From IMG/VR virus record IMGVR_UViG_3300017747_003292, positions 1 through 47,026 of that record: a stretch of 47,026 bases of DNA; one strand, 5' to 3'. The DNA is from a virus. Its lineage: Duplodnaviria > Caudoviricetes. The position numbers and the translations under genes were made by a program. The notes under the pieces are model-generated. The model was not told where the DNA came from, searched no databases, and saw nothing but the letters and a program-made list of their open reading frames with translations. Positions 1 through 42,400 of this stretch are shown piece after piece. Numbering within the stretch: the stretch's first letter is position 1; the number at the start of each line of letters is the position of its first letter.

Positions 1-123
1 AAACGATCCAGTTGCTTGTGTATTTGGTGTAAGATAAATCTCAGGAGTAAAATTAAATCCACTCCCACTCGTTGGTGTCAATCCACCAGCCGACCCAGTA
101 TCAGCCTCGTTCCAAGCATAGGT
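1..123. repeat. Terminal direct repeat, copy 1 (circular assembly overlap)
   Basis: Bases 1-123 (aaacgatcca...agcataggt) are identical to 46904-47026, and a minus-strand ORF reads in frame across the join. Confidence 0.97.
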
Positions 124-1362: not shown

Positions 1363-1363
1363 A

Positions 1364-4593: not shown

Positions 4594-6896
4594 GCAAAGT
4601 AGGAGTAAACGACTTGAACATTAGTGCCTTGTTGCCGCCCTGAAATCTCAAGACGCGTTGCATTGGTCAACACGCTTGGCGCGTTGGTTCCGTAGGTTCC
4701 GGCGAATCGATAGCGATTCGTCACAGCGGAAAATTCCAGCGTCCGATCTGAGCCGCTGCCGTTGGTGATGTTGCATGACCAGTAGTCAACAAGCGAGTCG
4801 CTGTAACCCATCACAGCCCGAATGCTGACGTTCGTGAATCCGTTGATGTAAACTTCAGGTTGCGTCGAGAGCAGTGTGAAGTTGGTGTTAGCTCCACCGA
4901 CTCCAGAGATTGCTGTTGGAGTAAATCGAATATTTCCATTCGTCAGCACATGCTGGCCGCTCGCAGTGCTCATAATCACCAGCGGCTGTCCTACCGTTAC
5001 TGTTCCGCGATCAATCTGAACATCATTCGTGCTGCCCGTTGCCGCTGGAGAATTCGTGGCGCGGGTGAAGGCCATCATGTCGCCTTGAAATGAACTAAGA
5101 CCCATCATTGGGATAGACGCATTACCAACCACCGAAACAGCTCCAGTTACAGTAAGCCCGCCACCAACAATGGCATTGGAGCTGAGATAAAGCCGCTTCC
5201 AAAGAGTTGTGGTTCTTCCAAGGTCTAAGTGATGTGTTATATTTGGTGAAAGATGATTAGTTCCTAAATCAACAGTCCCATCAACCACTCCAACATTTGA
5301 AAAAGTAAACTGCGCCTGACTTCCAAGAGGACCAACTACAGTCATTCCGTTAATTACCATCTTGTTTGTAAAAGACGAGCCGCCACCCTGGTATCCAACA
5401 GATATTGAAGGAGAACTATTAACCGCCCAAATAGTTAAGTCTTCCCCTGCTTCGTCATAGACAAAGGTGTTCGTTCCATCAAAAGCTCCTCCAGTATTAT
5501 ACTGCACTGAAGTAGCCACGCCACCCGGACTTCCGCTTCCACTCGCAGTCAACGTCCCTCCGCTCAGAGACAGCCCTGAAAGCGTTGCTGTTTTCACTTC
5601 ACCATACGCGCCGATGTAAGGGATGGTGTTGGTGGTAAGGTGCCCCAGCCGCAACTCAGTCTGGTCGAGGTTGTTGATTCTGCCGTTCGATGCAATGTCT
5701 TCATAAACAACCGTCGCGCCACTGCCACGGATGGAGTTTGCCGAGAGCGTTACGTTGGTTACGAACTGGCCAATCTGGATAATCTCAGCCGTGCCGTCAG
5801 AGTGATTATTAACAAATGTCGGATTGAGATTAGTGACTCCAGAGAACACTGTTCCACTAGCAGCAAACATGATTGGGACGGCTGCACTAAAGTTTACAAA
5901 CTTGTTTCCACTGTAAAGCGCATCGCGTCCGTTCTCTTGTGAAATACCATAACTCATCGTGCCGCTGCTATACTTGAAGATTGAGTCCGTCACGCGCACA
6001 TTCGGGAAATTTGTGCTGATGAAGATTGGTTCACCACCACCAAATACGCCGAAGTTACAGTCGTTGATGTCGAAATGATTCTGAGCGCGGTCGCTGGAGA
6101 TTGGTGCACCGGAAACCAGAATGCCTTTCGCACCAGCGTCCTTAGTCACAAACCAACAGTGGTCAGCGTAAGCCCAGTGCATGTAGTTGGTGGATGCCAG
6201 CTCAATACCCGCCCGCTTGAATCCAGTTGTCTCCATGTCGCGAAACACCGGCTCTGCGCAATCGACAATCTTCACGCCTACTCCATTCGCTCCAGCGTTG
6301 TCGCCCTCAATGCGGATGTCCTTGAACCGATTGATGCCACCGCTTCCGATTGTAGTGGTGCCGACTTGGAACACTGGGCCATTCAAAGCAGCGGTTGCGC
6401 GGATGACGGTCACAGGATTTCCGCCGCCACGAATGATGCCCCAGTTCGTGATCGTGATGGTCGCATCTGCCGAGTAGCTATTCGAATAATACGGATTGGG
6501 ATGAATGAAGATGTCGAATCCCGTTACCGCTCGATTAACAATCGACTGCATCAGCCCGCTGAAACTCGTCGAATTCGTCACGATTCCAAGCCCGCGATTC
6601 GCCGCGAAGAGAGAGTTGCTCACGGTCGGGCTGCCCCAGATTTCCCATGAGTTCCACTTATTCGTATACGTTCCAGTTCCATTAAGGTTCGTTAATAGGG
6701 CCGTTCCACCCTGTGCACTCAACGCCACATTAGTTCCAACAATGGTTGAATTCGCCAAGGTGTATGGTGTAACATACTTAAAACGATTTACACCCGTGTT
6801 AACCTCAGTCTGCGTTGCGGGAGGAGGAACAACTTGCGCCACCAAGCCTTGTTTCAAAATGAAACAAGACATTAAGATTAGAAAATGTTTATTCAT
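4584..6896 (-). CDS. Tail fibre/tailspike with pectate-lyase-like beta helix
   Basis: About 770 aa, T/N/G-rich, with a beta-helix region (IIRGGGNPVTVI..FKDIRIEG) and a 'SVQYNTGGAFDG' fibre motif. The likely start is MNKHFLIL at 6896 (the track starts at 6905). Confidence 0.7.
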   Translation of the reverse strand: MNKHFLILMSCFILKQGLVAQVVPPPATQTEVNTGVNRFKYVTPYTLANSTIVGTNVALSAQGGTALLTNLNGTGTYTNKWNSWEIWGSPTVSNSLFAANRGLGIVTNSTSFSGLMQSIVNRAVTGFDIFIHPNPYYSNSYSADATITITNWGIIRGGGNPVTVIRATAALNGPVFQVGTTTIGSGGINRFKDIRIEGDNAGANGVGVKIVDCAEPVFRDMETTGFKRAGIELASTNYMHWAYADHCWFVTKDAGAKGILVSGAPISSDRAQNHFDINDCNFGVFGGGEPIFISTNFPNVRVTDSIFKYSSGTMSYGISQENGRDALYSGNKFVNFSAAVPIMFAASGTVFSGVTNLNPTFVNNHSDGTAEIIQIGQFVTNVTLSANSIRGSGATVVYEDIASNGRINNLDQTELRLGHLTTNTIPYIGAYGEVKTATLSGLSLSGGTLTASGSGSPGGVATSVQYNTGGAFDGTNTFVYDEAGEDLTIWAVNSSPSISVGYQGGGSSFTNKMVINGMTVVGPLGSQAQFTFSNVGVVDGTVDLGTNHLSPNITHHLDLGRTTTLWKRLYLSSNAIVGGGLTVTGAVSVVGNASIPMMGLSSFQGDMMAFTRATNSPAATGSTNDVQIDRGTVTVGQPLVIMSTASGQHVLTNGNIRFTPTAISGVGGANTNFTLLSTQPEVYINGFTNVSIRAVMGYSDSLVDYWSCNITNGSGSDRTLEFSAVTNRYRFAGTYGTNAPSVLTNATRLEISGRQQGTNVQVVYSYFAWP
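6850..6866. repeat. parS-like palindrome copy 1 (intragenic)
   Basis: TGTTTCA-AAA-TGAAACA. Confidence 0.9.
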
Positions 6897-8879: not shown

Positions 8880-8936
8880 AAGGAAGGTGCCCCGTTAAGA
8901 CTTTTAGCCACGGGGCCACAGCTTGGTTATGTGGCT

Positions 8937-8953
8937 TGTTTCAAAATGAAACA
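8937..8953. repeat. parS-like palindrome copy 2
   Basis: TGTTTCA-AAA-TGAAACA; 23 bp identical to the copy 1 context. Confidence 0.9.
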
Positions 8954-8956
8954 AGA

Positions 8957-9586
8957 CTACGGACGGAATCCAGTCAGGTCGAGGTCGGTGATAGAGATGC
9001 CACCAGTGAAGTCCGTATCAGCATTCACAATTGAACGAATACGGCAACCCTTTGCACCAGCCCAGTTAACAGCCTTCACGATGTTTGTTGAGAACGTCAC
9101 AGCACCGGCTGCCGAAGTTACAACAAACGAGAAGTCATGCGTATCAGCAACAAACGTGCTACCATCATCTGGAATGTCTTTCCAGAAAGGCGTCACTGTA
9201 AACGTGATGGAAGCATTTGCACCAGAACCACCAATCAATTTACCACTAATAGTAAACGGACTGATATTCAGGAAGTTCGTAGTGCCAATTGGTCCAACAT
9301 AGATTTGAGAAATAGGAACATTACCATTCCTGTCACTCCACAATTGAACATCACGCACCAGTTTCGCCGTGTTTCCAGCATTCGTAACCAACACAGCAGT
9401 TCCCGCATTATTCGTCCAACGGGTGCCAAAGATATTGGTCATTCCCGCATACATAGTAATGTTAGAAATTGCTGCCACGTTAGAAACTTGCAACGACTTC
9501 ACATTCAAGAAACTCTGAGAGATGTGGGATTGAGCACTCGCTCCCACAGTCACCAAAGCCAACGCCAAAGTAATAAGATATTTCAT
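8957..9586 (-). CDS. Signal-peptide beta-rich protein following the capsid gene (possible decoration protein)
   Basis: MKYLITLALALVTVGASA|Q is a clear Sec-type signal, with an AAGGA upstream. Function is inferred from position only. Confidence 0.6.
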   Translation of the reverse strand: MKYLITLALALVTVGASAQSHISQSFLNVKSLQVSNVAAISNITMYAGMTNIFGTRWTNNAGTAVLVTNAGNTAKLVRDVQLWSDRNGNVPISQIYVGPIGTTNFLNISPFTISGKLIGGSGANASITFTVTPFWKDIPDDGSTFVADTHDFSFVVTSAAGAVTFSTNIVKAVNWAGAKGCRIRSIVNADTDFTGGISITDLDLTGFRP

Positions 9587-15353: not shown

Positions 15354-15695
15354 TTACTCTACCGGCACAGTGGGTTCATCGGGAGTTGGCGTAGTCACAG
15401 TGGCTTCATCCAAAGCCTTAACCTTAGACGCAAGCTGCCCAGTGATGTTCTCGATAGAGTTCAACAAGGCTTGGTCAGATGCACTAATCTCCCCACTAGA
15501 ATTCTGCAACTGTTCAATCTTTGCTTTGAGTGCAGTGACATCCGCCACCACCCCATCAACCGCAGAATCAATAGATGCAAACTGCTCCGTTACGCGTGCT
15601 GCAAAATCCGAGATAACTGACATAATGTGTTTCCTTTGAGTTAAGAGACGTAGTTCAAACCAACCAATTGAGAGAATAAGAAAGTAAACCCACAT
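15354..15695 (-). CDS. Coiled-coil protein with hydrophobic N-terminus
   Basis: The ATG overlaps the upstream stop (TGATG). An alternative start is MSVISDF. Heptad pattern present. Confidence 0.6.
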   Translation of the reverse strand: MWVYFLILSIGWFELRLLTQRKHIMSVISDFAARVTEQFASIDSAVDGVVADVTALKAKIEQLQNSSGEISASDQALLNSIENITGQLASKVKALDEATVTTPTPDEPTVPVE

Positions 15696-16381
15696 CAACT
15701 ATTTCCACTCGCGATAGTGGCTGCGAGTTCCTCGTCTGAGAGTTCGGCTGCATCCACATTCCCGTGCATTACGATTTGTGGGGCAGTGCCATAGAGACGA
15801 TCAAGGAGTTTGTGGGCGTCTTTGCACCGATCGGCAGGTTTTTGATCCTCAAGTTCCCCTCGAATGCTTTTCACCAACAGGAGTGCCGCGTCCTTCGCTG
15901 CGCCTTGAAGTTCTGCCATCACCGCCTTGCGGCCAGTCTTCTCCATCAACTGCGCGATGTAGGATTGTGCCCACTCCTGTTTTCTGACGTTCTGGATACA
16001 GGCAGTGGTGTAACCAGTCTGTTCTGCAATCTCGGTGGAGGTGAAACCCTGTGCCGCCAAGATACAAATGGCACGATGCTCTGGGCGTTCAACTTGAATA
16101 ACGTGTTGCGGCTTGCGCTTGTCTTGGTTCCAGAATTTAGGAGCTTCTTGTTGCTCTGGTATAGTGGCCGACTCCGTGGCTTCGGCAATCTGGCCTCCTA
16201 CGGCGGCCTGCGCATCCTTCGCTCGCTGCTCATACCTTGCCACCTCCTCATCACTCACCCCATCCATCAACGCCTTAAACGCTTCAACAGTCCCCTTAAC
16301 CGTGCTCTCGCCTACGGCTTGCGGCTGGATTGTATTCGCCTCCGGCTCACTCAGCATCTCGCTAATATCAAACGGTTCCAT
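15695..16381 (-). CDS. Putative terminase small subunit (HTH)
   Basis: HTH 'AAQGFTSTEIAEQTGYTTACIQNV', LLDRLYG and C-terminal ELSDEEL; first gene of the late arm. Likely ATG at 16381. Confidence 0.65.
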   Translation of the reverse strand: MEPFDISEMLSEPEANTIQPQAVGESTVKGTVEAFKALMDGVSDEEVARYEQRAKDAQAAVGGQIAEATESATIPEQQEAPKFWNQDKRKPQHVIQVERPEHRAICILAAQGFTSTEIAEQTGYTTACIQNVRKQEWAQSYIAQLMEKTGRKAVMAELQGAAKDAALLLVKSIRGELEDQKPADRCKDAHKLLDRLYGTAPQIVMHGNVDAAELSDEELAATIASGNS

Positions 16382-16385
16382 AGCC

Positions 16386-16402
16386 TGTTTCAATTTGAAA
16401 CA
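16386..16402. repeat. parS-like palindrome copy 3
   Basis: TGTTTCA-ATT-TGAAACA, just upstream of the terS ATG. Confidence 0.9.
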
Positions 16403-17020
16403 CAACCTGTGTTTCGTTAGTTACCTTGATGTGGACAACCCTCCGCTTCGCTCGGGACTACAATCTCCACCCGCACAAACTCATTCAGTGCATACTCCCG
16501 TAACTCTAATTCTAGCCCATCCTTCACGGCTTCGTGTTGTTCGCTTGCTTTCATGCCCCTAATCTACTCCTCACCTCCCAGTCCTCAACCGGAATCCTAG
16601 GATGGAGTTACGCTCCAGCACATTTCCCATCTAGTCTATATTATCACCAAGGTGTTGTTTGCCAAAACCTCACTTCTATTGACGTCTCTATTGTTTGGAC
16701 TTTGGAAGAGTTTTGAAAAATGATGCGGTTTGGTGAGAGGGGTCCCAAGATTAAGGGCTTGGAAAGTGAAAGGGGGGTGTGGGGGACTATCGTGGTGAGT
16801 CCATCCGATTGGGAGGGGGCAGAGCAAGAGGGAGGGCAAGCGAGGAAATTGGGCGCAGGCTTCGCAGGCTTGGCCTAGGCGAGAGATGATGGGCAGGATC
16901 ATATAAACAGGCGGGCGAGCCTTGCGGCTCGACCTAGGCGAAAGGATGGAGAAAGATTGCGAGGTGACACAATGGATGCTTGCATAGCATGGACCGGGCC
17001 AAGTGAGAATCTTTCCGGGG

Positions 17021-17739: not shown

Positions 17740-17769
17740 GCCCATCCTTTGATTAGGATGGGCTTTTTT
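17740..17769 (+). terminator. Rho-independent terminator
   Basis: GCCCATCCT-ttgatt-AGGATGGGC followed by TTTTTT. Confidence 0.85.
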
Positions 17770-17801
17770 CTTTCTCAATAGATTCCGTTGTTTCCATTCT
17801 T

Positions 17802-17922
17802 TAGCATCAGGAAACGACCGGCATATATGACAGGGAGTCCCCTATAAGGAGGGAAAAAAAAAAAAAATTACATAGAGGGGGGATAAGACACCAACCTATA
17901 TGGAGGGTGTTTCCTGATGCTA
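17802..17922. repeat. 14-bp inverted repeat enclosing a poly-A tract
   Basis: TAGCATCAGGAAAC (17802-17815) and GTTTCCTGATGCTA (17909-17922), with an A14 run between them. Confidence 0.8.
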
Positions 17923-18085
17923 GGGAAGATGTGGAATGGAAGGAAGGAAAGGACAAACAACAAGCAAGCAATCTTAGGATTGCCCTAGCCTAAAGCCAAG
18001 GGCAGGCTATGCTCTTGGCAAGCAAGCCATTGGCCCTTGGCCATAGGATGAATGCGAGAAAGCAACAACCTAACATAGGAAAATA

Positions 18086-18688
18086 ATGAATCCAGAAGTG
18101 GAAGTTAAGCCGAGGTATAGTATGAGTGAAGAGGCGTTTAGGAAGTATGAGGAGTATATTGGAATAGCAACGAAGGGAAGTTTTGAGGTTAATCCTTTGT
18201 CGTTGCCAAAACCTTTGAAGCAATCGACATTAGCGGTGAATTTAAGGGAGGCGATACGTGGGTTGAAGAAGTATGGATATAGGTCGAAGGTGGTGCCGAT
18301 TGGGTATGAGTTAGGGAGGATTAGGGTGTTGGAGTTGACTAATGGAAATGTGTGGTTGAGAAATGAGTATGCAGATCAAATGGGGAAGGTTGAGAAGAGG
18401 TTGGAGTTGAAGTCAATTGTGGTGGATGCGAATGGAGCGATTGTGAAACTTAATCAGAAGGTGGAAATACCAGAAGAACAAAGAAGATGGATGAGGGAGT
18501 TGGAGGTGATGGAGGTGCAGAAGTGGTGTGAGGAATTAAAAGCCAATCCGATGTGGAGGATTAACACTGCGTGGTTGATCAAAGCAACTGTGGAAGAGGA
18601 TGTGGAGTTCTTACGTGAGATTAGAAAGAGTTATGAGGGAGTGGATGTGGAGGAACTTGATCATGGGTGGTGGAGGCTGTATCAATAA
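18086..18688 (+). CDS. Hypothetical protein
   Basis: 200-aa ORF with AGGA upstream and protein-like composition. Confidence 0.7.
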   Translation: MNPEVEVKPRYSMSEEAFRKYEEYIGIATKGSFEVNPLSLPKPLKQSTLAVNLREAIRGLKKYGYRSKVVPIGYELGRIRVLELTNGNVWLRNEYADQMGKVEKRLELKSIVVDANGAIVKLNQKVEIPEEQRRWMRELEVMEVQKWCEELKANPMWRINTAWLIKATVEEDVEFLREIRKSYEGVDVEELDHGWWRLYQ

Positions 18689-18697
18689 ACCTTTTGC

Positions 18698-18714
18698 TGT
18701 TTCAAATTGAAACA
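18698..18714. repeat. parS-like palindrome copy 4
   Basis: TGTTTCA-AAT-TGAAACA. Confidence 0.9.
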
Positions 18715-18719
18715 AGACT

Positions 18720-18983
18720 ATGACACAACTACAATATAAAGAGTTGGCGCAAAGGATGGTGATGGAAGTTCGGGCATTGGATAGTGAAGTGTGCACCGGA
18801 GGATTTGAGAAGGGTTGGCCGAAACCAACAAATCAAATTGAGGCGGATAAGAAGTTGGAGAATCATACTAATACAAGGAAGAAGTACCATATATTTCTAA
18901 AGCAAATGAGTGCGAGCACTAGGGAGTTTGATGTGATGATGAAATTGGAGTATGAGAAGGAAGTGGAGGTGGATGGTGAATAG
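18720..18983 (+). CDS. Hypothetical protein
   Basis: 87-aa ORF whose ATG lies just after palindrome copy 4. Confidence 0.6.
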   Translation: MTQLQYKELAQRMVMEVRALDSEVCTGGFEKGWPKPTNQIEADKKLENHTNTRKKYHIFLKQMSASTREFDVMMKLEYEKEVEVDGE

Positions 18984-20702: not shown

Positions 20703-21386
20703 ATGAAAGTAGAAATTAAAGAGAGTCTCAAAGTTGGTGAACGTGCATTCAAAGCACCGGTTCTCGTGTATGAGAACATGGAAGAGATTAACAAGGCGGC
20801 TGGGAGTGTCGAGAAGCCGGTAGAGCGTTTGAACGGATTCCTCCACGCCCACGGCTCTGCCGGTGACCTGCGCGACCTCATCGCATCCATCGTGGAAGAG
20901 GTTTCCAAAGTCAAGCCGAACGTAAAGGACACGGGTAAGAAAAACGCAAAGGGTGAAGCGATCACCGAACAGGAGAAGGAAGCGGTCTACGTTACACGTG
21001 TCATTCAGGCACAGCCTGAACTCTTCGACAAGGTGCAAGCCTTGCTCGATCAACGTGCGCGTGGTTACACCTACAAGGATGAGAAGGGCACTGAGGTCAA
21101 GGTTCCTGCACTGGCGGTGGACATCAGCGTGCGCGTGGCCGCTCCCAAGGGTCCAAAATCCCTCGCGGCAAAGTGGAAGGAAGTCGCAACCAACTTCCTC
21201 GCGGGAAAGATCAACCCCAAGAGCGGCAAACCCTACAACCTTGCCAACCTCAACAAGGAGTTCAAGAAGTTCAATGTGGCCGAATTCGCGCCCACTGGTG
21301 AGCCGAACACCCCCGCAAACATCGAAGCACTCGGGTGGCTCTGCAAAGCCTACTCGGACGCGAAGGATGCGTTCGCTTCATTGTAA
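20703..21386 (+). CDS. Hypothetical protein, probably abundant
   Basis: 227 aa, K/A/E-rich, with visibly biased codons (AAG, AAC, TTC), an A/C-rich leader and a downstream hairpin. Confidence 0.8.
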   Translation: MKVEIKESLKVGERAFKAPVLVYENMEEINKAAGSVEKPVERLNGFLHAHGSAGDLRDLIASIVEEVSKVKPNVKDTGKKNAKGEAITEQEKEAVYVTRVIQAQPELFDKVQALLDQRARGYTYKDEKGTEVKVPALAVDISVRVAAPKGPKSLAAKWKEVATNFLAGKINPKSGKPYNLANLNKEFKKFNVAEFAPTGEPNTPANIEALGWLCKAYSDAKDAFASL

Positions 21387-21734: not shown

Positions 21735-22031
21735 ATGGTAACTAATATAGCAATCATGACCATCACCGCATATTGCCACTGTTCCCAGTGCTGTGGAAAG
21801 CCCAACCAACCCACCGCAAGTGGCCTCCGGCCGCGTGCAGGAACCACCATCGCAGCACCAAGAGCCTTGCCATTCGGAACCACGATCATGATTCCCAGTG
21901 TAGGAGCAAGGAAAGTGCAAGATCGCCTTGCAAGAAAATATGACAATCGTATTGACATCTTCATGGCCTCACACCAAGCGGCAAAGAATTTCGGTATCAA
22001 GAGAGAAACAGTAACAATCATAACTAAATAA
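21735..22031 (+). CDS. 3D-domain (MltA-like) peptidoglycan-related protein
   Basis: ITAYC..CCGK..TASG..IAAP..LPFGT..VQDR..RIDIFM..A.NFG is the 3D-domain pattern. Likely start at 21735 or slightly later. Confidence 0.85.
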   Translation: MVTNIAIMTITAYCHCSQCCGKPNQPTASGLRPRAGTTIAAPRALPFGTTIMIPSVGARKVQDRLARKYDNRIDIFMASHQAAKNFGIKRETVTIITK

Positions 22032-22035
22032 TACT

Positions 22036-22263
22036 ATGAGTAACACTAAGACTAAAATCAAAATCCTAGATCGTCTCGAAATCCTCGACCGCGCAATCAA
22101 GATGTGTGAAGAGAGCGAAACCACCCTCTCCAATCCCGGCATTTGTCTCGCCTGTGGCGCAGATGCAGATGGGTGTGAACCAGATGCACGGAACTACGAA
22201 TGTGAGGCTTGTGGCAAGAACAAGGTGTTTGGCGCACAAGAGGTGATAATGATGCTCGCATAG
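22036..22263 (+). CDS. Small zinc-ribbon protein
   Basis: GICLACG..GCEPDARNYECEACG (two CxxC). Confidence 0.75.
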   Translation: MSNTKTKIKILDRLEILDRAIKMCEESETTLSNPGICLACGADADGCEPDARNYECEACGKNKVFGAQEVIMMLA

Positions 22264-22266
22264 TCC

Positions 22267-22283
22267 TGTTTCAATTTGAAACA
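22267..22283. repeat. parS-like palindrome copy 5
   Basis: TGTTTCA-ATT-TGAAACA. Confidence 0.9.
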
Positions 22284-22297
22284 AGCCCAAAACCATT

Positions 22298-22825
22298 ATG
22301 CATTATCTACGAATTTCAATAGTAGTAGACAGCGACGAACAACTCGACACCATCCGAGAGGCCCTCTCCAGCGACCTCGAATGCTCTCTCGATGGTGCCT
22401 GCAAAGTCGTTAACATCACCCACGACCGCGACCTCGCTGCCGCTTTTGTGCAAGAACGGAGTTCAAGGACCGAACACCAAGTGCTGACGAAAAAGGAGTC
22501 CTCTCTCTCCTATGACGTCGCTACCGTTCTTGCACACTACTCATTAACACTTCCTAAGAGTTGGTTGAAGCATGGGGCACCTCCACCAAAGGTGCCACAG
22601 AACCAAATCTATGGTGAGATTCAGGGTATCCCCTCACTACGTGGCCGCATCGTTCTCACCAATGGCATCATGGCCTTCATGGTGCGAGAGGATGGTAGAT
22701 GGAACTATGTGCACTGGAACCACTTCATCCCGGATGATGTGGACAAAATCGACCACGACATCCCACAACCCATGCAGAGGACACGTGTGGATTCTAAGAC
22801 TGAGCTTGACTTTATGAACTTCTAA
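22298..22825 (+). CDS. Hypothetical protein
   Basis: 175-aa ORF after palindrome copy 5. Confidence 0.65.
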   Translation: MHYLRISIVVDSDEQLDTIREALSSDLECSLDGACKVVNITHDRDLAAAFVQERSSRTEHQVLTKKESSLSYDVATVLAHYSLTLPKSWLKHGAPPPKVPQNQIYGEIQGIPSLRGRIVLTNGIMAFMVREDGRWNYVHWNHFIPDDVDKIDHDIPQPMQRTRVDSKTELDFMNF

Positions 22826-27221: not shown

Positions 27222-27656
27222 ATGAGCACAAACATCCAAACTGTTATCGAACAAATCCAATACCGCATCGATCAAAACAACGCAGCAACAACCAGACTTT
27301 TCAACCTATCCCAAGTTCTTTCAAAGTTCCCACAGCTCGACGATCTCTCCATCCCAATCAGCTTCCAATATGATGGTCATAGTATTGACTTCGACTACCT
27401 CACCCACGACCAAACGATTGAAGTAATCAAAGTGCTGGGTGGCAAGTGGACCAAGAGTCTCAATGGCACTGACACCATTGACTATAATACCACCATCGAT
27501 GGTGTAAACTTCCGAATCTTTGCCGGTCAACCACCACCATCCTGTGAAGTCATCGAAGAGACCGTGATTGTTCCCTCCCACTACACCCCTGAGACAACCA
27601 AGACCATTCGTCGACTCAAATGTGTCCCCGAAATCTCAGGTCCTGTTTCAAATTGA
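27222..27656 (+). CDS. Hypothetical protein
   Basis: 144 aa; the stop codon lies within palindrome copy 6. Confidence 0.65.
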   Translation: MSTNIQTVIEQIQYRIDQNNAATTRLFNLSQVLSKFPQLDDLSIPISFQYDGHSIDFDYLTHDQTIEVIKVLGGKWTKSLNGTDTIDYNTTIDGVNFRIFAGQPPPSCEVIEETVIVPSHYTPETTKTIRRLKCVPEISGPVSN

Positions 27657-27660
27657 AACG
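27644..27660. repeat. parS-like palindrome copy 6 (one mismatch)
   Basis: TGTTTCA-AAT-TGAAACG, overlapping a stop codon. Confidence 0.85.
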
Positions 27661-27668
27661 CCACCATC

Positions 27669-28460: not shown

Positions 28461-28786
28461 ACCTCGAAACCCTCCAAGCCGAAGTCTCTGAATGGGCCAC
28501 CCGTAACTTCCCACACAACAAACCACACATGCCACTCCTTGGTGCCGCCGAAGAGATTGGTGAACTCTGCCATGCCCACCTCAAAGACGAACAAGGAATT
28601 CGTGGCACTCACGCTGAACATCAGGAAGCCAAGACTGACGCGGTAGGGGACATCGTAATCTACCTCGCAAACTATTGCCTTCTCAACAACCTTGACCTCT
28701 CCCTTGCAGTTACCACTGCATGGAACCAAGTCAAGCAACGAGACTGGAACACTAACAAACAAGACGGAAAAATAATTACCAAATAA
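28457..28786 (+). CDS. MazG-like NTP pyrophosphohydrolase
   Basis: AEEIGEL...DAVGDIVIYL helical motif. Confidence 0.88.
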   Translation: MNLETLQAEVSEWATRNFPHNKPHMPLLGAAEEIGELCHAHLKDEQGIRGTHAEHQEAKTDAVGDIVIYLANYCLLNNLDLSLAVTTAWNQVKQRDWNTNKQDGKIITK

Positions 28787-28790
28787 TACT

Positions 28791-29177
28791 ATGAGCAAAC
28801 ACCGCGATGACTCCTTTGGTCGCAGCGACCGCTACGCCAATCCACTTGACGGCCTTCACAAACTCTCCGGCCACAAACAAGAGGCACACCATAAACTTGT
28901 GAGTGGCATCATCAAAGAGATGAACTTCAAAGAGGACGAAATCAACGACATCACCCGCCTGCACATGGAAGCAATCCAACGGGTGAAGATCATCCGCCAA
29001 TATGCACAGGCTGTGCGGCAGGGTGAATTCGAGAGTGGCACCGAACACAATGTGGAACGCATGATTGCGGACCTCACACCACGGTTCCTCGATGCCTTCC
29101 ATCACTATGACAAGGACCAATTGCTCAATATTCTCTCCCTCATGCTGGTGGAAGTCACCATGAAGGAAGTATCCTAA
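28791..29177 (+). CDS. Hypothetical protein
   Basis: 128-aa helical ORF in the operon. Confidence 0.65.
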   Translation: MSKHRDDSFGRSDRYANPLDGLHKLSGHKQEAHHKLVSGIIKEMNFKEDEINDITRLHMEAIQRVKIIRQYAQAVRQGEFESGTEHNVERMIADLTPRFLDAFHHYDKDQLLNILSLMLVEVTMKEVS

Positions 29178-29727: not shown

Positions 29728-29850
29728 GAGATGGTGAGAGTGGGGCGCGCATACTTATCACGCGCAATTGCATCTTCTATTTTAAGCCTTCCTAAAATTC
29801 ATCCTTAATTTGATATTGCCAAGCCTTTAAAATGCCCTAAATTGGCATCT

Positions 29851-30261
29851 ATGAGCAATCTAAAGCAAAGCATGAAGGCAATCGAGATCCAAGCCATGCG
29901 GCAAGCTATCGTATATGGATGGTATCGTCAGCCCAATTACTTATACATAGGTAAATCTAACGTGGGCATATGCCGAATACTAGCGCATGATAAAATAGGA
30001 GTTGTCGAACCGTTACTAGAAGAAGATGAAATACATATCTTTACCGTTGATAAGGACATTAGCTTAACTGAAGTTGAGCTGATACAAAAATACAAACCAA
30101 AATACAATTTTACTTATACTCATAAAGAACCTATGGAAGTCAACTGCATTAAATGTGGTAATAAATTTTGGCAGAATCGAGCATGGCAAAAATACTGTAG
30201 TCGTCAATGCTCGGGTTCAAAGTCGCACTATTCTTCACGTGCTTTTCAGCATATTAAGTAA
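29851..30261 (+). CDS. GIY-YIG endonuclease with C-terminal zinc ribbon
   Basis: IVYGW..YLYIGKS..R..H..E.ELIQKYKPKYN, then CIKCG..YCSRQC. AT-rich relative to its flanks. Confidence 0.82.
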   Translation: MSNLKQSMKAIEIQAMRQAIVYGWYRQPNYLYIGKSNVGICRILAHDKIGVVEPLLEEDEIHIFTVDKDISLTEVELIQKYKPKYNFTYTHKEPMEVNCIKCGNKFWQNRAWQKYCSRQCSGSKSHYSSRAFQHIK

Positions 30262-30280: not shown

Positions 30281-31813
30281 ATGAACCCCACAACCTTACC
30301 AATAAATGAAATCCAATCCATCGACCGACAACGTCTTGACCTTGGTGATATACAAGGTCTGGCAGAAAGCATTCGTCAGTTCGGACTCTTGCAGCCCGTG
30401 GTCATCACTAAAGACCGGCGACTCATTGCAGGTGGTCGACGTCTCGCGGCGCATCAATTCCTCGGGAAGACTCATATCGAGGTTGTCTTTCGCGAAGACA
30501 TGCCACAAGACATGCTCCACATCCTCGAACTTGAAGAGAACATCAGACGGAAGGACGAAAGCTGGCAGGAACGCTGCCTCCACATCACCACTATCCATCG
30601 GCTCAAACAAAAAGCCAACGCCCTCGAAGGCACCACATGGACCCAGCGTGCTACCGCGGAACTACTCGGAGTGGACTCAGTCCGAGAAGTCAATCACGCG
30701 GTCCAAATGGCACAAAGACTAGAAGCGGAGCTTGATGAGAACAAACAACCAAAGCCCGATGCAAGGTTCTGGAACTGTGAAAGCATCTCCGAAGCATTTC
30801 GACTCTTGTTCCGTGACGAAGCAGACCGTGCAATGGCTGACCTCGCACGCCGTCAGGCAGAACGCACGGCCTCCATCACCCAGATCGAAGTTGAAGAGGA
30901 CCTTGTAGGTCTCGACCCATTTGACGACGCTCCATCCTTACCTCAATCAACTGTCACCGCAGTTTACGAAGACGTCGCTAAGGCACAAGCCAAACTACGT
31001 TATGACTCCAATCCTATCAATCCACCAGATGGGTTTGAGGAATTTTGGAAACACCGTCAAGCCATGCTGAATGATAGACAAAACTCTATCTACATCTCCA
31101 AACAACTAATCAACACCGACTGCATCACTTACATGCGGGAAAATCCCGGTCGCTTCGACCACGTCATCACCGACATCCCATATGCAATCGACATGGATAT
31201 GATCTCCCAATCCCAGAACACCTTCCGGGACATAGACACAGTCGAGGAACTCCACGACGTATCCTACAACATGCAGTTGATCGCCGACTTCTTCCCAGCC
31301 GCATTCTCCACCATCAAGGAGAAGGGTTTCTGCATTACATGGTGTGACCAAATGCTCTGGCAATACATGTATGACCATGCAGTGAAAGCGGGTTTCGCTG
31401 TGCAACGCTGGCCCATCGTTTGGCACAAGAACAACGCAATGAATTCTTGTGTGGCCTACAACACCACCAAGAACACGGAGATTGCAATTGTTTGTAGAAA
31501 GAAAGGCACCGTGCTGGTGAACCAACCCAACACCTCTGTGATCCAAACCGGCAAAGACGATCTCTGTAACTCCCTCGATCACCCATTCGCCAAACCATTC
31601 GCCATCTGGAAATTCCTTGTGGAGATGGCTACCCTCGAAGGGCAATCCATTCTCGAACCTTTTGCTGGTCGTGGCTCTGGTGTAATCTCTATGCTAAAAC
31701 TCAACCGCGCAGTGATTGGAACTGAGCTGGACACCAACCACTACAATGCCCTGTTGGAAAACGTCAAACAACTCCACTACCTCCCACTCAACCCAAACTA
31801 CAAGTTCCACTAA
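30281..31813 (+). CDS. ParB (CTPase + HTH)-DNA N6A/N4C methyltransferase fusion, 510 aa
   Basis: ParB motifs: LAESIRQFGLLQPVVI, IAGGRRL, ELEENIRRKD and HTH WTQRATAELLG. Beta-class MTase motifs: VITDIPY, HPFAKP, LEPFAGRGS, IGTELD. Likely start ATG 30281. Confidence 0.9.
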   Translation: MNPTTLPINEIQSIDRQRLDLGDIQGLAESIRQFGLLQPVVITKDRRLIAGGRRLAAHQFLGKTHIEVVFREDMPQDMLHILELEENIRRKDESWQERCLHITTIHRLKQKANALEGTTWTQRATAELLGVDSVREVNHAVQMAQRLEAELDENKQPKPDARFWNCESISEAFRLLFRDEADRAMADLARRQAERTASITQIEVEEDLVGLDPFDDAPSLPQSTVTAVYEDVAKAQAKLRYDSNPINPPDGFEEFWKHRQAMLNDRQNSIYISKQLINTDCITYMRENPGRFDHVITDIPYAIDMDMISQSQNTFRDIDTVEELHDVSYNMQLIADFFPAAFSTIKEKGFCITWCDQMLWQYMYDHAVKAGFAVQRWPIVWHKNNAMNSCVAYNTTKNTEIAIVCRKKGTVLVNQPNTSVIQTGKDDLCNSLDHPFAKPFAIWKFLVEMATLEGQSILEPFAGRGSGVISMLKLNRAVIGTELDTNHYNALLENVKQLHYLPLNPNYKFH

Positions 31814-31819
31814 CGGTCT

Positions 31820-31836
31820 TGTTTCAATCTGAAACA
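31820..31836. repeat. parS-like palindrome copy 7
   Basis: TGTTTCA-ATC-TGAAACA, 6 bp after the ParB-MTase stop. Confidence 0.9.
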
Positions 31837-31847
31837 CGCCCATCACC

Positions 31848-32036: not shown

Positions 32037-32362
32037 ACTTTAACACCACCAACTGGTCCACCTTCACCCGTCCTGATGGTCTCTGCAATCTACTCAACGC
32101 ACACGGAACTGTGCTCGCCACCTTCCGCGACTGGCAGCTTGCAGAATACGTGGCCAATCTCACCCAAGAGGTCGAGAAGAACACGGAGATTATCTCGAAA
32201 CTTGAAGACCGGGTAGCAGAACTTGAAGAGGAAGTTAGTGTTTCTGAACAAGACTACAAAGACACTAAGGAACAAGGTGAACAGAACCACCGCACCATCC
32301 TCGATCTCGAAAAAGAAATCGACGACCTCAAAGTCAAGCTCTTCAACCTTTCCCGCGCATGA
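32033..32362 (+). CDS. Coiled-coil hypothetical protein
   Basis: 109 aa with ATGA overlaps on both sides. Confidence 0.65.
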   Translation: MNFNTTNWSTFTRPDGLCNLLNAHGTVLATFRDWQLAEYVANLTQEVEKNTEIISKLEDRVAELEEEVSVSEQDYKDTKEQGEQNHRTILDLEKEIDDLKVKLFNLSRA

Positions 32363-35058
32363 GTAACTTTGATGACTTCGACCTCGAAGAAACCATCTCC
32401 GAGAAGGTGGTTCATTCCACCGTCCCAAACCAATTCCCATCAATTCCACCCACCACCTATCGTCTCGCCATCATAGGTGATTTTCCACACGCAGATGACG
32501 TTCACCAACAGAAACCCTTTGTTGGAATGGCAGGACAATTCCTATCCAACATCCTCTCTTCACTCTCCATCCTCCGTGCCTGTTGCTATCTCGGCAACGT
32601 CCACCAAACCCCTCGAACCAAGTTCGACAAAACCCCACCCACCACTGATGAACTCACCAAGCTCCACGAAGACCTCGCCATCTTCAAACCTAATCTGTGC
32701 CTGCTCCTCGGTCGCACACCTCTCATACTTGCAAAAGCAACTAAGGACCTTGACGCTTGGAGAGGTTCAATGTTTGTCTCCGAAACTCCGGGACCTTTTG
32801 CTGGCTATAAGTGCCTTGCCTCTTACCACCCAAGAGAATGTCTACGCAACTACGACTGGACTCCACTCCTCACCATGGACCTCAGGCGCGCAGCAGTCGA
32901 AGCAAGGACTCCCACTCTCATACTCCCCGACCGTGCTCTAATCACCAACCTCCCCTTCCCCACCCTTCTCCATGAACTTACCCAAATTCAACTCACCAAA
33001 CCCACTATTGCTTGCGATATCGAGGGTGGAATCAACACTCTTTCATGCATTAGTATCGCTACTTCTCCGCAGCACTCTTTCCTTATTCCGTTTACACGAT
33101 TGGATGGAACACCATACTGGGATCAGTTCGAGGAGGGAAGACTTTGGAAAGAGCTTGCTAGTATTTTATCAGACCCAAGCATCACCAAAATCTGGCAGAA
33201 CGGTTTGTATGACCGTTTCGTTCTCCAATACTCCTATGCGATAGTGGTCCGTAACTCCGAGGACATCATGCTTGCGTGGTGGGAACTCTACTGTGAGCTT
33301 AAGAAATCCCTTGGCTTCCAGTGCTCCATCCTCACCTCCGAACCCTTCTACAAATCCGACCGCAAGACCACTGACCAAGACACCTTCTACAAATATTGCT
33401 GCCGTGACTCTGCGGTTACATTCGAAATCCACTCCAAACTAAAAGCCCTTCTACAACCAAAACAACATGCCCATTACTTATTTAACAATACTGCCCTCAA
33501 CTTCCTCCTCTACGCCGAACTACGCGGTATCCGTTACAATCAACCTCTCGCTAATGAAAGGCTCCAAGACGTTGAAAAACAAATTTCTGGTTTACAAAAC
33601 TCCCTCGACTCCATCGCTGCCGACATGGGGGCACTTCGACGACTTAGTTTTAACTGCTCAAATCAGGATGTGCTTAGACAAGTTAACGAAATCTGCTGCT
33701 ATAAAAAGAACCAAGCGCAACCCAAAAAAGAGTTTGAAGAAGCGGGTTACTTCCAAATCAGAGATCGTCTACAACAAGAAACACCGCTCACCCCAGACGA
33801 GCAAGGTGAAATCTCAATCCTCTGTGGGTTGATCATGAACAGCAAGAGCACCAAGTTTAAGGACTTCCTCTATGATACTTGCGGCCTCCCAGTGCAATAC
33901 AAAAAGGACCCAGTCACCCGGGAACTCCGTCCCACAACCGACTACGAGTCCCTGCTCCGACTCACCAAATCCCACTCCCATCCGGTTCTTGGCCTTGCTC
34001 TTGACCTGTCTCGCCTTCGCACCCGTGCACAGATGCTGGCGATACGTTCCATCAATGGACGTATGCACTGTTCTTACAATCTTGTTGGCACAGAAACGGG
34101 TAGAATAACTTCCTCCAAAAGTATCCTCCCATCTTATGGCAAGAAACGAGTAGGGGCCAACCTACAAACCGTTCCGGATGACTGGGACGTAGCCGACCCC
34201 GACTCCCCCCTTGCACAAGGTATGAGGGACCTCTTCCTCGCCGACGAAGGTTGCTACATCGGCAAAGCCGACCTCAAAGGTGCAGATGGTTGGACCATCG
34301 GTGCATACATGGCATCCATCGGAGACCGCACCATGCTTGACGACCTCCTCTATGGAATTAAACCTGCACAAGTAGTCGCCTACATCCTCATGCACGGAGA
34401 AGCGAAATACTCCCAATTCGCCAAGGACCGCGTTGCTCTACTCGACGCTGTTCAATGTGTAAAAAAAGACATGTGGCAATACTTCGTTTCCAAGGTCGGC
34501 ATCTGGGGTTATTTCTACACCATGGGACCAAAGTCCCTTGCCATGAACGTCTTCATCCAATCCGAGGGTGCAACTGTTCTCTCTGAGAAAGACGCTCGTG
34601 AATTCCAACGCTGTATTGGTGTCCGCTATAACGCCCACCGCTTGCACAAATACTTCGAGGATCAAATCGCCCGTCACCCCTACCCATTCAAACTCGAATG
34701 TCCCAATGGTATGACTCGTAGATTTTTTGGACGGAAAAAGGAAATCCTCGGTGAGGTTCTAGCCCATGTCCCACAGGTCGTAACAACCCACGCCACTGTG
34801 ATGGCCGCAACAAATCTTTGGATGGATGTTGACAATCGCCGCACCGATGGTAGCTTACGTGTTGAAATTCTACACCAAGTCCACGACGAACTCGTTATGC
34901 AATGGCGTATTGAAGACACAGAATGGGCAAAGGAGAAAGTTAAACAATGGTTCAACAACCCTATGAAGATAGTCAATCAAACAATAACCATTCCCTACGA
35001 CGGTGCCTATGGCACAGCATGGTCAATGGACTCTAACCACAAAATCGGAACGCTATGA
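32359..35058 (+). CDS. polA: Family A DNA polymerase with N-terminal uracil-DNA-glycosylase-like (family 4) domain
   Basis: UDG-like: IIGDFP..KPFVGMAG..SYHP. 3'-5' exonuclease: CDIEG, QNGLYD, YCCRD. Polymerase: TETGRITSS, NLQTVP, ADLKGAD, K..IWG..Y.MG, QVHDEL. Confidence 0.93.
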   Translation: MSNFDDFDLEETISEKVVHSTVPNQFPSIPPTTYRLAIIGDFPHADDVHQQKPFVGMAGQFLSNILSSLSILRACCYLGNVHQTPRTKFDKTPPTTDELTKLHEDLAIFKPNLCLLLGRTPLILAKATKDLDAWRGSMFVSETPGPFAGYKCLASYHPRECLRNYDWTPLLTMDLRRAAVEARTPTLILPDRALITNLPFPTLLHELTQIQLTKPTIACDIEGGINTLSCISIATSPQHSFLIPFTRLDGTPYWDQFEEGRLWKELASILSDPSITKIWQNGLYDRFVLQYSYAIVVRNSEDIMLAWWELYCELKKSLGFQCSILTSEPFYKSDRKTTDQDTFYKYCCRDSAVTFEIHSKLKALLQPKQHAHYLFNNTALNFLLYAELRGIRYNQPLANERLQDVEKQISGLQNSLDSIAADMGALRRLSFNCSNQDVLRQVNEICCYKKNQAQPKKEFEEAGYFQIRDRLQQETPLTPDEQGEISILCGLIMNSKSTKFKDFLYDTCGLPVQYKKDPVTRELRPTTDYESLLRLTKSHSHPVLGLALDLSRLRTRAQMLAIRSINGRMHCSYNLVGTETGRITSSKSILPSYGKKRVGANLQTVPDDWDVADPDSPLAQGMRDLFLADEGCYIGKADLKGADGWTIGAYMASIGDRTMLDDLLYGIKPAQVVAYILMHGEAKYSQFAKDRVALLDAVQCVKKDMWQYFVSKVGIWGYFYTMGPKSLAMNVFIQSEGATVLSEKDAREFQRCIGVRYNAHRLHKYFEDQIARHPYPFKLECPNGMTRRFFGRKKEILGEVLAHVPQVVTTHATVMAATNLWMDVDNRRTDGSLRVEILHQVHDELVMQWRIEDTEWAKEKVKQWFNNPMKIVNQTITIPYDGAYGTAWSMDSNHKIGTL

Positions 35059-39400: not shown

Positions 39401-42400
39401 TTGTCAGTCTTTGGGAGTGGGTATAGGGTGCCAGAGACATCAGTCTTAGGCGTGCCGTCTGGATTTTTGAAGATGAGGTTGGAGCGAGGACTCGATTTAC
39501 GCAAGGACTTAGCCAATTCTAATGCCTCTTTGTAATCCGCAATCGAAACTGTTTCACCTGTATCTTGATTGGTGACATCCCACTTACCTTTACCGTCTGC
39601 AAAGACAGAAATCTCTGAAACTCTTACTGCATTCTTATGCTCTCCCACACTAACCCTCTCCCCCTTACTCCCAGTCAACTCTTCCGCTATACCATGCAAC
39701 ACTCCCGGCCTTTCAATAGGCGTTTGACCTTCTTTTGCACTAGCCAGAGCTTCTTGTTCTGATTTCCACGGACCGGCTTCTTTGACAAATTTTCCTTCCT
39801 TATCTCGAAGAGTCCAATAAGTCTTGTCGTAGTTGAGGCGCATGCCGGGTTCCTGCTCCACCCCATAATCAATAACTTTCCACCTACCTTTCTCACCACT
39901 ATCAGGTTCGATTACATATTTTTTGTTCGGCGACTCTTTAACTAACTGTTCAGCTGCTTCCCTTGTGAGTAATCCTTTTACATACTTACGTCCGTGCAAA
40001 TCGTGCCCCTCCGTCATCATCGCAGTCTCCGCATCACTCAACATAATATGAGTGGCACCTTCTTTCCGCACTTGATCAATTGTTGCTTTGAGGATTAGAC
40101 GATTGTAGTCGCGGAGGAGAGGGTGACCAGTAGCATCACCCATTTTCTGTTTGAGAGTATTCGCATACTGTTGCGCTTCTTGTTCTGTTGCGAAGCGAGA
40201 GGTAGCACGCTCACCACTACCCCCGAAGCCTGTTCTATTCTGATGAGATACTACCCACGGTTTAGTTTCATCACCAAAAGTTGCAGGTTTGTTTTCTACC
40301 TTAATTTGGTCTAATTGTTTGCGGTGCTCCTGCCCCCACCTACTCTGCCCCTCCGCAAGAAGTGCAATCCGCTTCCCATCAGGAGTTTCAGGAAGGTATT
40401 GAACCATACTCCATCCGAGAGTGTTGGGAAGGTTTTCGTGGAGGTTGTCGGGTTGCCATAACACGTTTCTTTTAATGTTAAAATCATTATTCTTTTGTCG
40501 CTCGACTCGTTCTGCCTTAGAAAGATCAGGATTGTGTGGCACCACCACATCCACCCTCTGCACATTCTTTCCCCCTTTAGTAGTCGTCCACTCAGGCATT
40601 GGTTGAGTAGTGTCGAGAGCGGAGACTGTGGAGTAATAGGAGGTTGCGCGGGGGGAGGTGTCTTTAGGTTCGTGGTATGTAGTAGCTTTTAGTTCAGCAT
40701 ATTGCTGTGCCTTACTTACATCTACACCCAGTTGTCGCAGTCTATCCACATAGGCAGTAGTGCTTTTCTTTTCTATTGTAGCTCTATTTAGCTGATCTAC
40801 TACTAGCTGTGGTGTTTCATCTAGGTTATCATACCACTCATGCGTCATTCTATCATACTCCTTCTTCGCCTCACTCACCTTCCCCTCCATCCCATAACTA
40901 TGAGTCTGCACCTCCACTCCCCCCTCCTGCAACATCTCTGCCGCTTCTTCCGGACTCACCTTCCCCAGCTCCACAATCTTCTTATCCACACCACTCTTCT
41001 CGTAGATGTCCTTCTCAGCGGGAGTCAATTTATTCTTAACTCTATTCCACAACTGCTGCGCATCCACCTTCTTGGTCACATCCTTAAACCCACTCTCCTT
41101 AGGGTCGAGTGCAATACGGGGGCCACTTAGTGCAAAGGTGTCTCCACGCTTCTCCTTTTCTTTCTTCTTGAACTTCTCCACAATAAACGGGAAGGGGTTC
41201 GGCACACTCCCACCCTCTTTGTTCTTCTCAATCGCCCTAGCCATTCCACCACCCATCCCACCACCACTAGGTGCAGCACTAGCAGCCTGTGCCTGTGGCG
41301 GCATCCCACCATACTTATTCTTCACCCTCTCATTCTCCTTCATCACCTCCTGCATCTGAGTGAAACTCTCAGGTTTGTCCATTGTGGGATCATTCTCACG
41401 GATGGCTTTGAGCTTTGCCTGCGCACCTTGATACGCAGCAAGGTCTTCTGGAGTTCCATAGTAGGTGGTGCCCATTGGGTCACCTAGTGGATTGAGATTC
41501 TTAGATGTGGCCATCTTCGCCACTGTGGGTTTCACCGGCACTGCTGGTGCTGTTTCATTTTGAAACACGACTGGAGCCTTAGGTTCCTCAACCTTCACCT
41601 CTGGTTGCACCACACTCTGCCTCGCACTCGGAATCCCCTGAGCCTCCGCAGGCGCACGGAAACTAATCTCACCCCCGCTTGGTTCCACCGGCGGCCTACT
41701 CGGAACAAACACTGGCCTCACTGGTCTTGTTTCATTTTGAAACACAGGCTTCACCTCAGCCTGTTTCTCTCCACCAATAATCACCGGAGCCTGCTGTGCA
41801 GGTCGCACATACTGTTCCCGCGGCACAAACTCCTTTGGTCCACGATACAACTCCACCTGTTCCTTAGGACTCAGCTGACTAATATCCACCGCTTTGCCAG
41901 TAACATCCACCCCAAACCTCGCCGCCCCAGCAGGACGATCAAGTGGACTTCCAGTCGGCATCGTAGGTCTCTCTCCCGGCGCAGGCAACCTCGGAGGTGT
42001 AGCAAACTCCGCCTCCGTAAACGGCAACTCAGGTGCCTTCAACTGAAGACCAGTAGGCGCAACCGGTCTCTGCAACGGTGGCATCACCTCCGGCACAATT
42101 GGTCGAGGCGTATACTGATCCACCAACCCCTTGCCAATCTTCCCACCCAACAACAGATTGATTGCAGTATTATACGCAGCCTCTTCCCGCGCCTGCGGTG
42201 TCTCCCCCGTCACTATCCCCGGTGCACTCTGTAACCCACTCGTCACCATCTGTGGTGCAAACACGGTCGCAGCAAGTTGTCCACCAACACCCTTCCCCGC
42301 AGCCAACGGAAGCGTGGCCACATTCTCCGGCGTAGTCAACCCCTGCACCACCTGCGCAAGCACCCTCGGCAATGCACTCACATCTGGCATCTGTTCCGGA

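Follow-up and report, generated by a model that had tools for sequence, protein, structure and literature searches.

The DNA considered here, called the window, is the whole of a 47,026-nucleotide (nt) viral record (Caudoviricetes; IMG/VR record IMGVR_UViG_3300017747_003292), and the element in question is a plus-strand gene for a 510-amino-acid (aa) protein in which a ParB fold and a helix-turn-helix (HTH) are fused to a beta-class amino-methyltransferase. Judged by its anatomy and by its covariation with a family of palindromes dispersed through the window and the genomes of its relatives, the fusion is a ParB-family site-reading protein, and it is very probably the HTH that binds the sites. 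Whilst the fusion type is already known, the site family and the residue–base code predicted for it appear to be what is new. Closure of the fusion as a clamp and its sliding along DNA are probable, and the case that it is a self-addressed load-and-slide methyltransferase, modifying DNA in cis, is evenly balanced.

Anatomy of the fusion and its family of sites

The features of the fusion gene are as follows.

30281..31813, plus strand: fusion gene, 510-aa ParB fold, HTH and beta-class amino-methyltransferase (from Pfam, PHROGs and relatives)
30281..30553, plus strand: ParB nucleotide-binding fold, residues 1-91 (R16-x-R18, G51-G52-R53-R54, E83..E86-N87..R90)
30638..30727, plus strand: ParB/Noc-type HTH, residues 120-149 (from profile alignment, model helices and covariation)
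30680-30682, plus strand: V134 codon, aligned with the ParB Arg or Noc Gln of the recognition helix
30878..30955, plus strand: acidic low-confidence linker, residues 200-225 (predicted local distance difference test, pLDDT, < 50)
31088..31786, plus strand: beta-class N6-adenine/N4-cytosine methyltransferase domain, residues 270-502 (DIPY before FxGxG)

Two Pfam domains score above cut-off in the protein (ParB_N, residues 14-88; N6_N4_Mtase, residues 293-490), and the motifs lie at residues 50-54 (AGGRR), 83-90 (ELEENIRR), 120-149 (HTH), 298-301 (DIPY) and 459-466 (EPFAGRGS), which bears out the ParB–HTH–methyltransferase reading frame and the motifs described in an earlier note on this DNA. 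The structure model (mean pLDDT 84.9) places the HTH helices at 122-129 and 134-149, with the acidic stretch at 200-225 disordered, and its ParB fold superposes on those of Noc and ParB with Z-scores of 14.2-14.7 and a root-mean-square deviation (rmsd) of 1.5-2.0 over 87-90 residues. A profile of 36 N-terminal halves could be aligned without a break to Noc and Spo0J, recognition helix included (E 5e-22 to 1e-18), the match to Noc running uninterrupted across positions 4-155, and Foldseek aligned residues 1-200 to Noc over 160 columns (rmsd 4.5). The methyltransferase domain resembles CcrM (Z 24.6, rmsd 2.9, 227 aligned residues) and M1.HpyAVI (Z 24.2, rmsd 2.1, 192 aligned residues) and has the beta-class order, with motif IV (DPPY type; DIPY at 298) preceding motif I (FxGxG; FAGRG at 461). 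A Pfam scan of the protein gave no match to a ParB C-terminal domain.

The window carries ten exact copies of the palindrome GTTTCA-N3-TGAAAC, whereas shuffled sequences hold a mean of 0.12 and a maximum of 2, and a chance origin is thereby ruled out. In nine of these copies the 17-bp arms are perfect, the site extends to approximately 25 bp with an outer GT and AC, and seven copies lie at gene junctions and three within coding sequence:

6846..6870: site 1, in the signal-peptide-like start of ORF 4584-6896 (minus strand; ORF, open reading frame)
8933..8957: site 2, at a gene junction in the virion operon
16382..16406: site 3, immediately 5' of the ATG of the HTH gene upstream of terminase (15695-16381, minus strand)
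18694..18718: site 4, between ORFs 18086-18688 and 18720-18983
22263..22287: site 5, between ORFs 22036-22263 and 22298-22825
27640..27664: site 6, overlapping the end of ORF 27222-27656, 5' of the Sak4-like gene
31816..31840: site 7, adjoining the fusion gene stop codon, the palindrome beginning 6 bp after TAA
36443..36467: site 8, 3' of the primase-family gene, where two arms converge
41547..41571: site 9, in a Pro/Val/Glu-rich segment of a 2112-aa ORF
41724..41748: site 10, in the same 2112-aa ORF, 177 bp from site 9

The ten dispersed palindromes reported in the earlier note, one of them 6 bp past the fusion stop codon, were thus recovered. Its statement that ParA and integrase are missing also holds among the 57 window ORFs, which were scanned against Pfam and PHROGs. 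The canonical 16-bp parS with its 2-bp spacer (N2) has no copy in the window at zero or one mismatch, and the protein has no ParA-binding peptide, the ParB fold beginning directly at its start; with no ParA, no such peptide and no canonical parS, the system is not ParABS. A likeness of the site ends to CRISPR repeats was dropped, there being no array and other cores in the relatives.

At least 440 near-full-length relatives of the fusion protein (E <= 0.001) were found among 8000 scored candidates. Viral contigs were scanned with an alignment of the fusion protein and, separately, with one of the DNA polymerase, which gave syntenic loci and a comparison set of 93 genomes or loci, window included. 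Within a large uncultured clade the gene comes close to being core: a ParB-HTH gene is present in 34 of the 40 records found through the polymerase, and the neighbourhood is kept, with ssb upstream of the fusion gene in 70/71 and the DNA polymerase on its other side. A palindrome finder blind to the protein recovered a genome-specific, odd-centred palindrome in 49/86 fusion-bearing relatives (best null score -1.5, in 16 simulated genomes); adding a GT/AC-anchored finder brought this to 57/86, and sites are present in 25 of the 28 relatives with at least 40% polymerase identity. These sites form a family of approximately 25 bp, in which most members have GT at -12/-11 as well as AC at +11/+12, around a variable core: GTTTCA (window and G001), GTTCAA (G004), ATTCAA (G006), GCCCAA (G007), TATCA (G015) or TGTCA (G023). 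Since the core varies between relatives, the likeness to parS is confined to the lineage of the window, and neither canonical parS nor a spacer variant of it was accepted as a description of the clade, the window having no N2 site and the relatives having other cores. The 17-bp parS variant with altered spacer that the earlier note had proposed falls with this (other cores include GCCCAA, ATCA and GTCA), as the register differs too: if the base at -6 is a contact of the ParB R173 type, the read span would be 13 bp compared with 14 in parS, making the site shorter in register, not longer. Some relatives (G022 and G032; G037, G038, G039, G047 and L051) keep the odd centre with the outer GT/AC replaced by other flanks (ACTTT or A-rich).

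Covariation of site core and recognition helix

For the covariation tests a site qualified if it had an odd centre and either a score <= -2.5 or the outer GT. This was the case in 51/93 records, the 42 without a qualifying motif being excluded, and 41 genomes remained after dropping proteins more than 60% identical. Among these 41, Arg at the position equivalent to V134, the second residue of the recognition helix, goes with G at -6 of the site (5/5, compared with 5/36 of the others; p 3e-4), and Gln goes with A (3/3, compared with 0/38; p 9e-5). Both pairs match contacts seen in crystals, where ParB R173 meets guanine and Noc Q158 adenine (PMC7383237). In a scan of 1901 variable columns from nine shared proteins the top single scores fell to T121 and R123 and the top summed score to V134, all in the HTH, and HTH residues 130-138 were the best of 1609 eight-residue windows from ten core proteins after correction for identity (r 0.349; others mean -0.005, sd 0.085). 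On the polymerase tree, the base at -6 differs in 4/5 pairs of unlike Arg/Gln class and in 3/14 of like class (p 0.038), and no independent pair on the primase tree runs against the Arg, Gln or Lys rule. Three held-out genomes were consistent with the code: G064 (Gln) carries ATCA seven times, G075 (Arg) a weak GTTA twice, and of the three anchored matches in L435 (Arg) two show G.

Several observations weigh on the other side. Position -6 and the Arg and Gln rules were originally picked out visually in a subset of these data, so that the Fisher p-values are optimistic. Background columns in Sak4 reach a z of 5.3 (5.6 in the HTH), and with 21-residue windows a stretch of the polymerase (0.310) stands ahead of the HTH (0.300). 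Among the held-out cases, L434 has Arg, with an insertion in the turn, and carries T, and G008 and G055 have A at -6 without Gln; strictly independent pairs, taken from supported branches of the primase tree, are too few for any single rule to reach p < 0.05. In 29/86 fusion-bearing records neither finder gave a site. Finally, G049 shows five clear sites, yet its 35.6-kb record (76% complete) contains no fusion gene; the contig stops before the ssb gene, but the stretch upstream of the polymerase, at 3.4 kb, is longer than the gap normally seen there.

This last genome would also suit a reading in which another protein recognizes the sites, be it the product of the gene at 20703-21386, that of the HTH gene on the terminase side or a host factor, and the fusion is linked to them by shared ancestry; the 20703 gene indeed provides the runner-up among the eight-residue windows (r 0.341, 29 genomes). 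This is quite improbable in light of the gene losses. In G051 and G066 the sequence runs from ssb to the polymerase without a fusion gene, and there are no sites in 33 and 41 kb; the genes at 20703 and 18086 and the HTH gene beside the terminase are all retained in G066, although fusion and sites are both missing. The sisters G023 and G015, moreover, swap Arg and Gln jointly with G and A, and site similarity tracks polymerase identity only weakly (r 0.17). No further close relatives of the gene-less G049 and G051 were found. The XRE HTH gene at 22830, which the earlier note had named as the protein that the motif might track instead, had no match in 47 relatives (a search without a positive control) and by profile is present in 1/93, the window's own copy, and was excluded as the reader. 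As separate observations, the gene at 20703-21386 (plus strand) encodes a conserved 227-aa protein found in 57/93 genomes, for which an atlas search returned no family, and the gene at 15695-16381 (minus strand), likely the terminase small subunit, contains a site or has one at its start in 10/27 relatives.

Taken together, the covariation, the residue–base chemistry and the losses of gene without sites make the HTH of the fusion the likely reader. The expectation in the earlier note that the palindromes covary with the HTH in relatives therefore holds for helix and core and for the two site-free losses, but not for G049, where the sites stand without the gene in the sequence available.

Predicted clamp, cargo and the placement of sites

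In the proposed mechanism the fusion would dock on the ten palindromes through its HTH, close at a site as a nucleotide-gated clamp and slide over the few kilobases between sites, which would confine methylation to the phage genome; with a core peculiar to each lineage, the address would belong to the phage alone and would not coincide with host parS. The benefit might be partial anti-restriction, self-marking or timing. The nucleotide-binding residues are near-invariant, G51 and R54 being found in 87/87 proteins, R16, R18, E83 and R90 in 86, and the position of N87 holding N in 80 and D in 7. Two points stand against it. The earlier note had described the cytidine triphosphate (CTP) box as intact-looking, and its AGGRR and ELEENIRR motifs are present, but the residue aligned with the catalytic Glu93 of Myxococcus xanthus ParB is Gly52, and just 15/87 proteins have Glu there; and a different phage ParB system could do without its nucleotide-binding residues (PMC13229309). 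The M. xanthus E93A protein still binds nucleotide, closes its clamp and spreads further (bioRxiv 2021.05.05.442810), and Gly52 in place of the catalytic Glu could possibly mean slow clamp release. Some ParB-fold fusions bind adenosine or guanosine triphosphate (ATP or GTP; PMC12704722). Across the relatives no clear link was found between sites and an intact GxRR box. Two sister lineages with an altered P-motif (GGTR, GECR; G026, G027, G071 and G084, and G030, G033 and G035) have no convincing sites and keep intact methyltransferase motifs; it is possible that they have lost site-loading and kept the enzyme.

It is the cargo on which the principal rival turns. Here, the fusion slides from its sites but has a KorB- or Noc-like job, either long-range transcription control or the coating and organizing of replicating DNA, and the methyltransferase fold is a passenger or the C-terminal dimerization module required by a clamp. 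Beta-class methyltransferases have been described as dimers. The methyltransferase motifs are gone from G059, G067, G068 and G076 (the domain is decayed in G059, G067 and G076 and unassigned in G068), and sites persist in G059, G068, G076, L430 and L432, all of them without a recognizable methyltransferase, which favours a non-catalytic role and counts against methylation as the output. In the 27 near-complete genomes, 126/259 sites are centred outside called ORFs, where 24 are expected, the other half being coding, and KorB is able to silence from sites up to >1 kb away (PMC11790492). On the other hand, both beta-class motifs are intact in 77/87 proteins, and in one lineage an unrelated predicted DNA methyltransferase (phrog_3816, E <= 1e-33) is fused to the same ParB-HTH with the sites kept, which favours selection for methylation:

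L254:2-856: phrog_3816 fusion, G057
L259:8389-9777: phrog_3816 fusion, G060
L260:5283-6650: phrog_3816 fusion, G061
L261:8300-9685: phrog_3816 fusion, G062

On the polymerase tree these four genomes lie nested among G059 and G067. The patterns of decay and swap indicate that the sites follow the ParB-HTH half, whose usual partner is a methyltransferase, acquired on two occasions. Nor is any site position conserved at a promoter or operon start: no gene has an adjoining site in most genomes, the best cases being 10/39 before the primase gene and 10/34 after ssb. We regard the KorB- or Noc-like job as unlikely, and methylation in cis as the selected output as an even call.

Restriction offers little help to the methylation reading. 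GTAC occurs twice in the window, where 86 copies are expected, and is avoided in 26/65 genomes with an intact enzyme, so that methylation does not make the avoidance of restriction sites unnecessary. Blanket protection, the anti-restriction role suggested by the earlier note, is accordingly not supported, GTAC being strongly avoided and the sites outlasting a decayed methyltransferase. GATC, for its part, was seen 106 times in the window (217 expected). Avoidance of six-base palindromes is slightly stronger in six genomes without the enzyme (median 0.615) than in 65 with it (0.67; p 0.03), a difference too weak to use; four-base palindromes showed no difference between the same sets (p 0.17), and palindrome avoidance did not reveal the methylation target.

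The placement of the sites bears on whether the fusion slides at all. As an ordinary site-specific dimer, it might serve as a stoperator-like roadblock or operator, or methylate only beside its sites or genome-wide in trans. Several window sites lie 1-20 bp 5' of start codons, a site falls inside the fusion gene in 12/41 genomes, the ParB catalytic Glu is mostly absent, and repressor sites scattered over a whole phage genome are already known in the form of stoperators (PMC9283540). We nevertheless consider a non-sliding dimer improbable: a plain repressor would not need the near-invariant nucleotide-binding residues, and the sites are symmetric, evenly spaced and untied to genes. Their spacing is more even than random in 15/26 near-complete genomes at p < 0.05, a test that took linear contigs as circles and drew on genomes that share ancestry; in the window by itself the evenness does not reach significance (p 0.17), which goes against sliding from regular loading points. 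Beside the fusion gene itself, a site comes directly after the stop codon in 2/41 genomes and before the start in 3/41, so that the stop-adjacent site pointed out in the earlier note is incidental. Intragenic sites lie mostly in linker-like segments, including the linker of the fusion, and the protein at the scaffold position has a site in residues 52-84 in 9/15 genomes, each with the core of its own genome. A sigma-70 promoter scan stayed at chance level (19 versus 18.4), and fixed operator positions are not supported, site positions being unconserved next to any one gene. Even spacing, indifference to genes and location in linkers thus favour loading points over operators, and the sites would be better described as position-independent loading points every few kilobases than as promoter operators.

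Phage N15 has dispersed centromeres, and the sites could in principle be the same, with the fusion partitioning or positioning a plasmid-like or carrier-state phage genome through host ParA or SMC. The closest solved relatives of the N-terminal half, namely ParB, Noc and one plasmid ParB, would suit this. It is very improbable, however, given that the protein opens with the ParB fold and lacks a ParA-binding peptide, that the ORFs scanned include no ParA or integrase, and that ssb and a DNA polymerase flank the gene within a replication block of lytic type.

Returning to the load-and-slide methyltransferase, its widest form, a genome-addressed modification, is put forward tentatively and falls somewhat short of an even chance. 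In it, specificity would come from a ParB clamp at phage-private palindromes about every 5 kb and not from short targets alone; the phage would mark only its own genome, with a code that diversifies in the manner of immunity types, and the cargo would be exchangeable. From the overall model of the earlier note, the pairing of sites and fusion has gained comparative support, whereas the parS-variant site, the stop-adjacent site and blanket anti-restriction have not.

Genome setting, known systems and significance

The window is a complete 46.9-kb podovirus-like phage genome, circularly assembled with a 123-nt terminal overlap. Terminase, portal and major head genes are on the minus strand, and a replication block is on the plus strand, comprising an exonuclease, a Sak4-like annealase (the AAA_24 gene), a MazG-like gene, a likely ssb, the fusion gene, a fusion of uracil-DNA-glycosylase (UDG) and PolA, and a primase-family gene. 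The UDG-PolA gene (32359-35058, plus strand) joins a DNA polymerase A, a uracil-DNA-glycosylase-family domain and a 3'-5' exonuclease, and the fusion of UDG and polymerase A is conserved through the clade, being split in some relatives (G066, G070). Immediately 5' of the fusion gene is an AT-rich ORF (29842-30261, plus strand) with a GIY-YIG-like start (by eye), a C-terminal four-cysteine motif and a weak PHROG HNH-family match; it is present in one relative and is possibly a mobile endonuclease. A 31-nt inverted repeat around a run of 15 A (17797-17927) lies in the region where the two arms diverge, with a strong terminator-like hairpin upstream (17740-17763). A 485-codon frame (1-1455, minus strand) crosses the circular junction at the window start, has matches in nine relatives and is absent from the default ORF list. 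An A-rich start context without a Shine-Dalgarno sequence is repeated at 22013-22043 and 28768-28798 (AATAATACTATG) and may hint at the host group. A genome scan (23/64 parts) gave near-full-length or close protein matches solely on three contigs binned into metagenome-assembled genomes, with conflicting labels. In a separate search no annotated phage covered 80% of the fusion protein. Of the listed sequencing runs containing the region, the best is a freshwater metagenome, possibly the source sample, and none is an RNA run.

Fusions of this kind have been described, as the earlier note stated: few phage ParB fusions are commoner than those with a methyltransferase, whose role has been left open (PMC12704722). 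Those phage and prophage ParB-fold::N6_N4 proteins combine PF02195 and PF01555, as does the window chain; the available portions describe them without an HTH, a cognate site or a sliding model, and a site family and residue–base code are identified here. The one characterized ParB-methyltransferase found, BCE_0392 of a Bacillus cereus prophage, gave weak N6-methyladenine (m6A) in E. coli and no reported activity on lambda or pXbaI DNA, the lambda test being in vitro, for which its authors suggest misfolding or missing recognition sites (PMC3459991, PMC3592412, PMC5512222). Unlike the fusion here, it is a terminase-linked prophage gene with reported non-specific nicking. Its inactivity on lambda DNA would fit a need for loading sites; misfolding would fit too. 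In the ParB-dependent phage thymine dioxygenases a phage ParB fold is likewise coupled to a DNA-modifying enzyme, which it activates, but the proteins are separate, the ParB has no DNA-binding domain and the nucleotide residues are non-essential (PMC13229309).

Site-loaded ParB clamps with outputs other than partition include Noc, KorB (PMC11790492) and BisD. With ParB-parS and Noc-NBS the fusion shares the ParB fold followed by an HTH, a palindromic site and the Arg-to-G and Gln-to-A pairs at the equivalent helix position (PMC7383237). It differs in its odd-centred site of approximately 25 bp with outer GT/AC and a core differing between phage lineages, in lacking the ParA peptide, the ParB C-terminal domain and the catalytic Glu, in its fused enzyme, and in sites spread across a whole phage genome about 4-5 kb apart. 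KorB-OB of plasmid RK2 is likewise a ParB-family clamp of a mobile element with dispersed sites (a dozen for KorB) and a non-partition output (PMC11790492); by comparison, the fusion has site positions untied to promoters and a catalytic cargo, and no IncC/ParA or KorA-like partner was found, no dedicated partner search having been made. Mycobacteriophage repressor-stoperator systems also have many genome-wide sites that diverge with the phage protein (PMC9283540, PMC6550527), but those sites are asymmetric and the repressor monomeric, whereas the sites here are symmetric and the protein combines a ParB fold with an enzyme. Cognate sites or a load-and-slide role for ParB-methyltransferase fusions were not found in the open literature (subscription papers and supplements lying outside this scope).

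One large clade of ParB-methyltransferase fusions now has a concrete predicted DNA target and a residue–base code, and binding, nucleotide gating and cis methylation are testable with one protein and one oligonucleotide. The natural pairs of helix and site would carry the known range of ParB/Noc specificity far past parS and NBS, and might provide orthogonal tools for DNA labelling or region-wide methylation. If sliding methylation is true, a ParB clamp would deliver an enzyme, and a virus would tell its own DNA from that of its host by the loading site.

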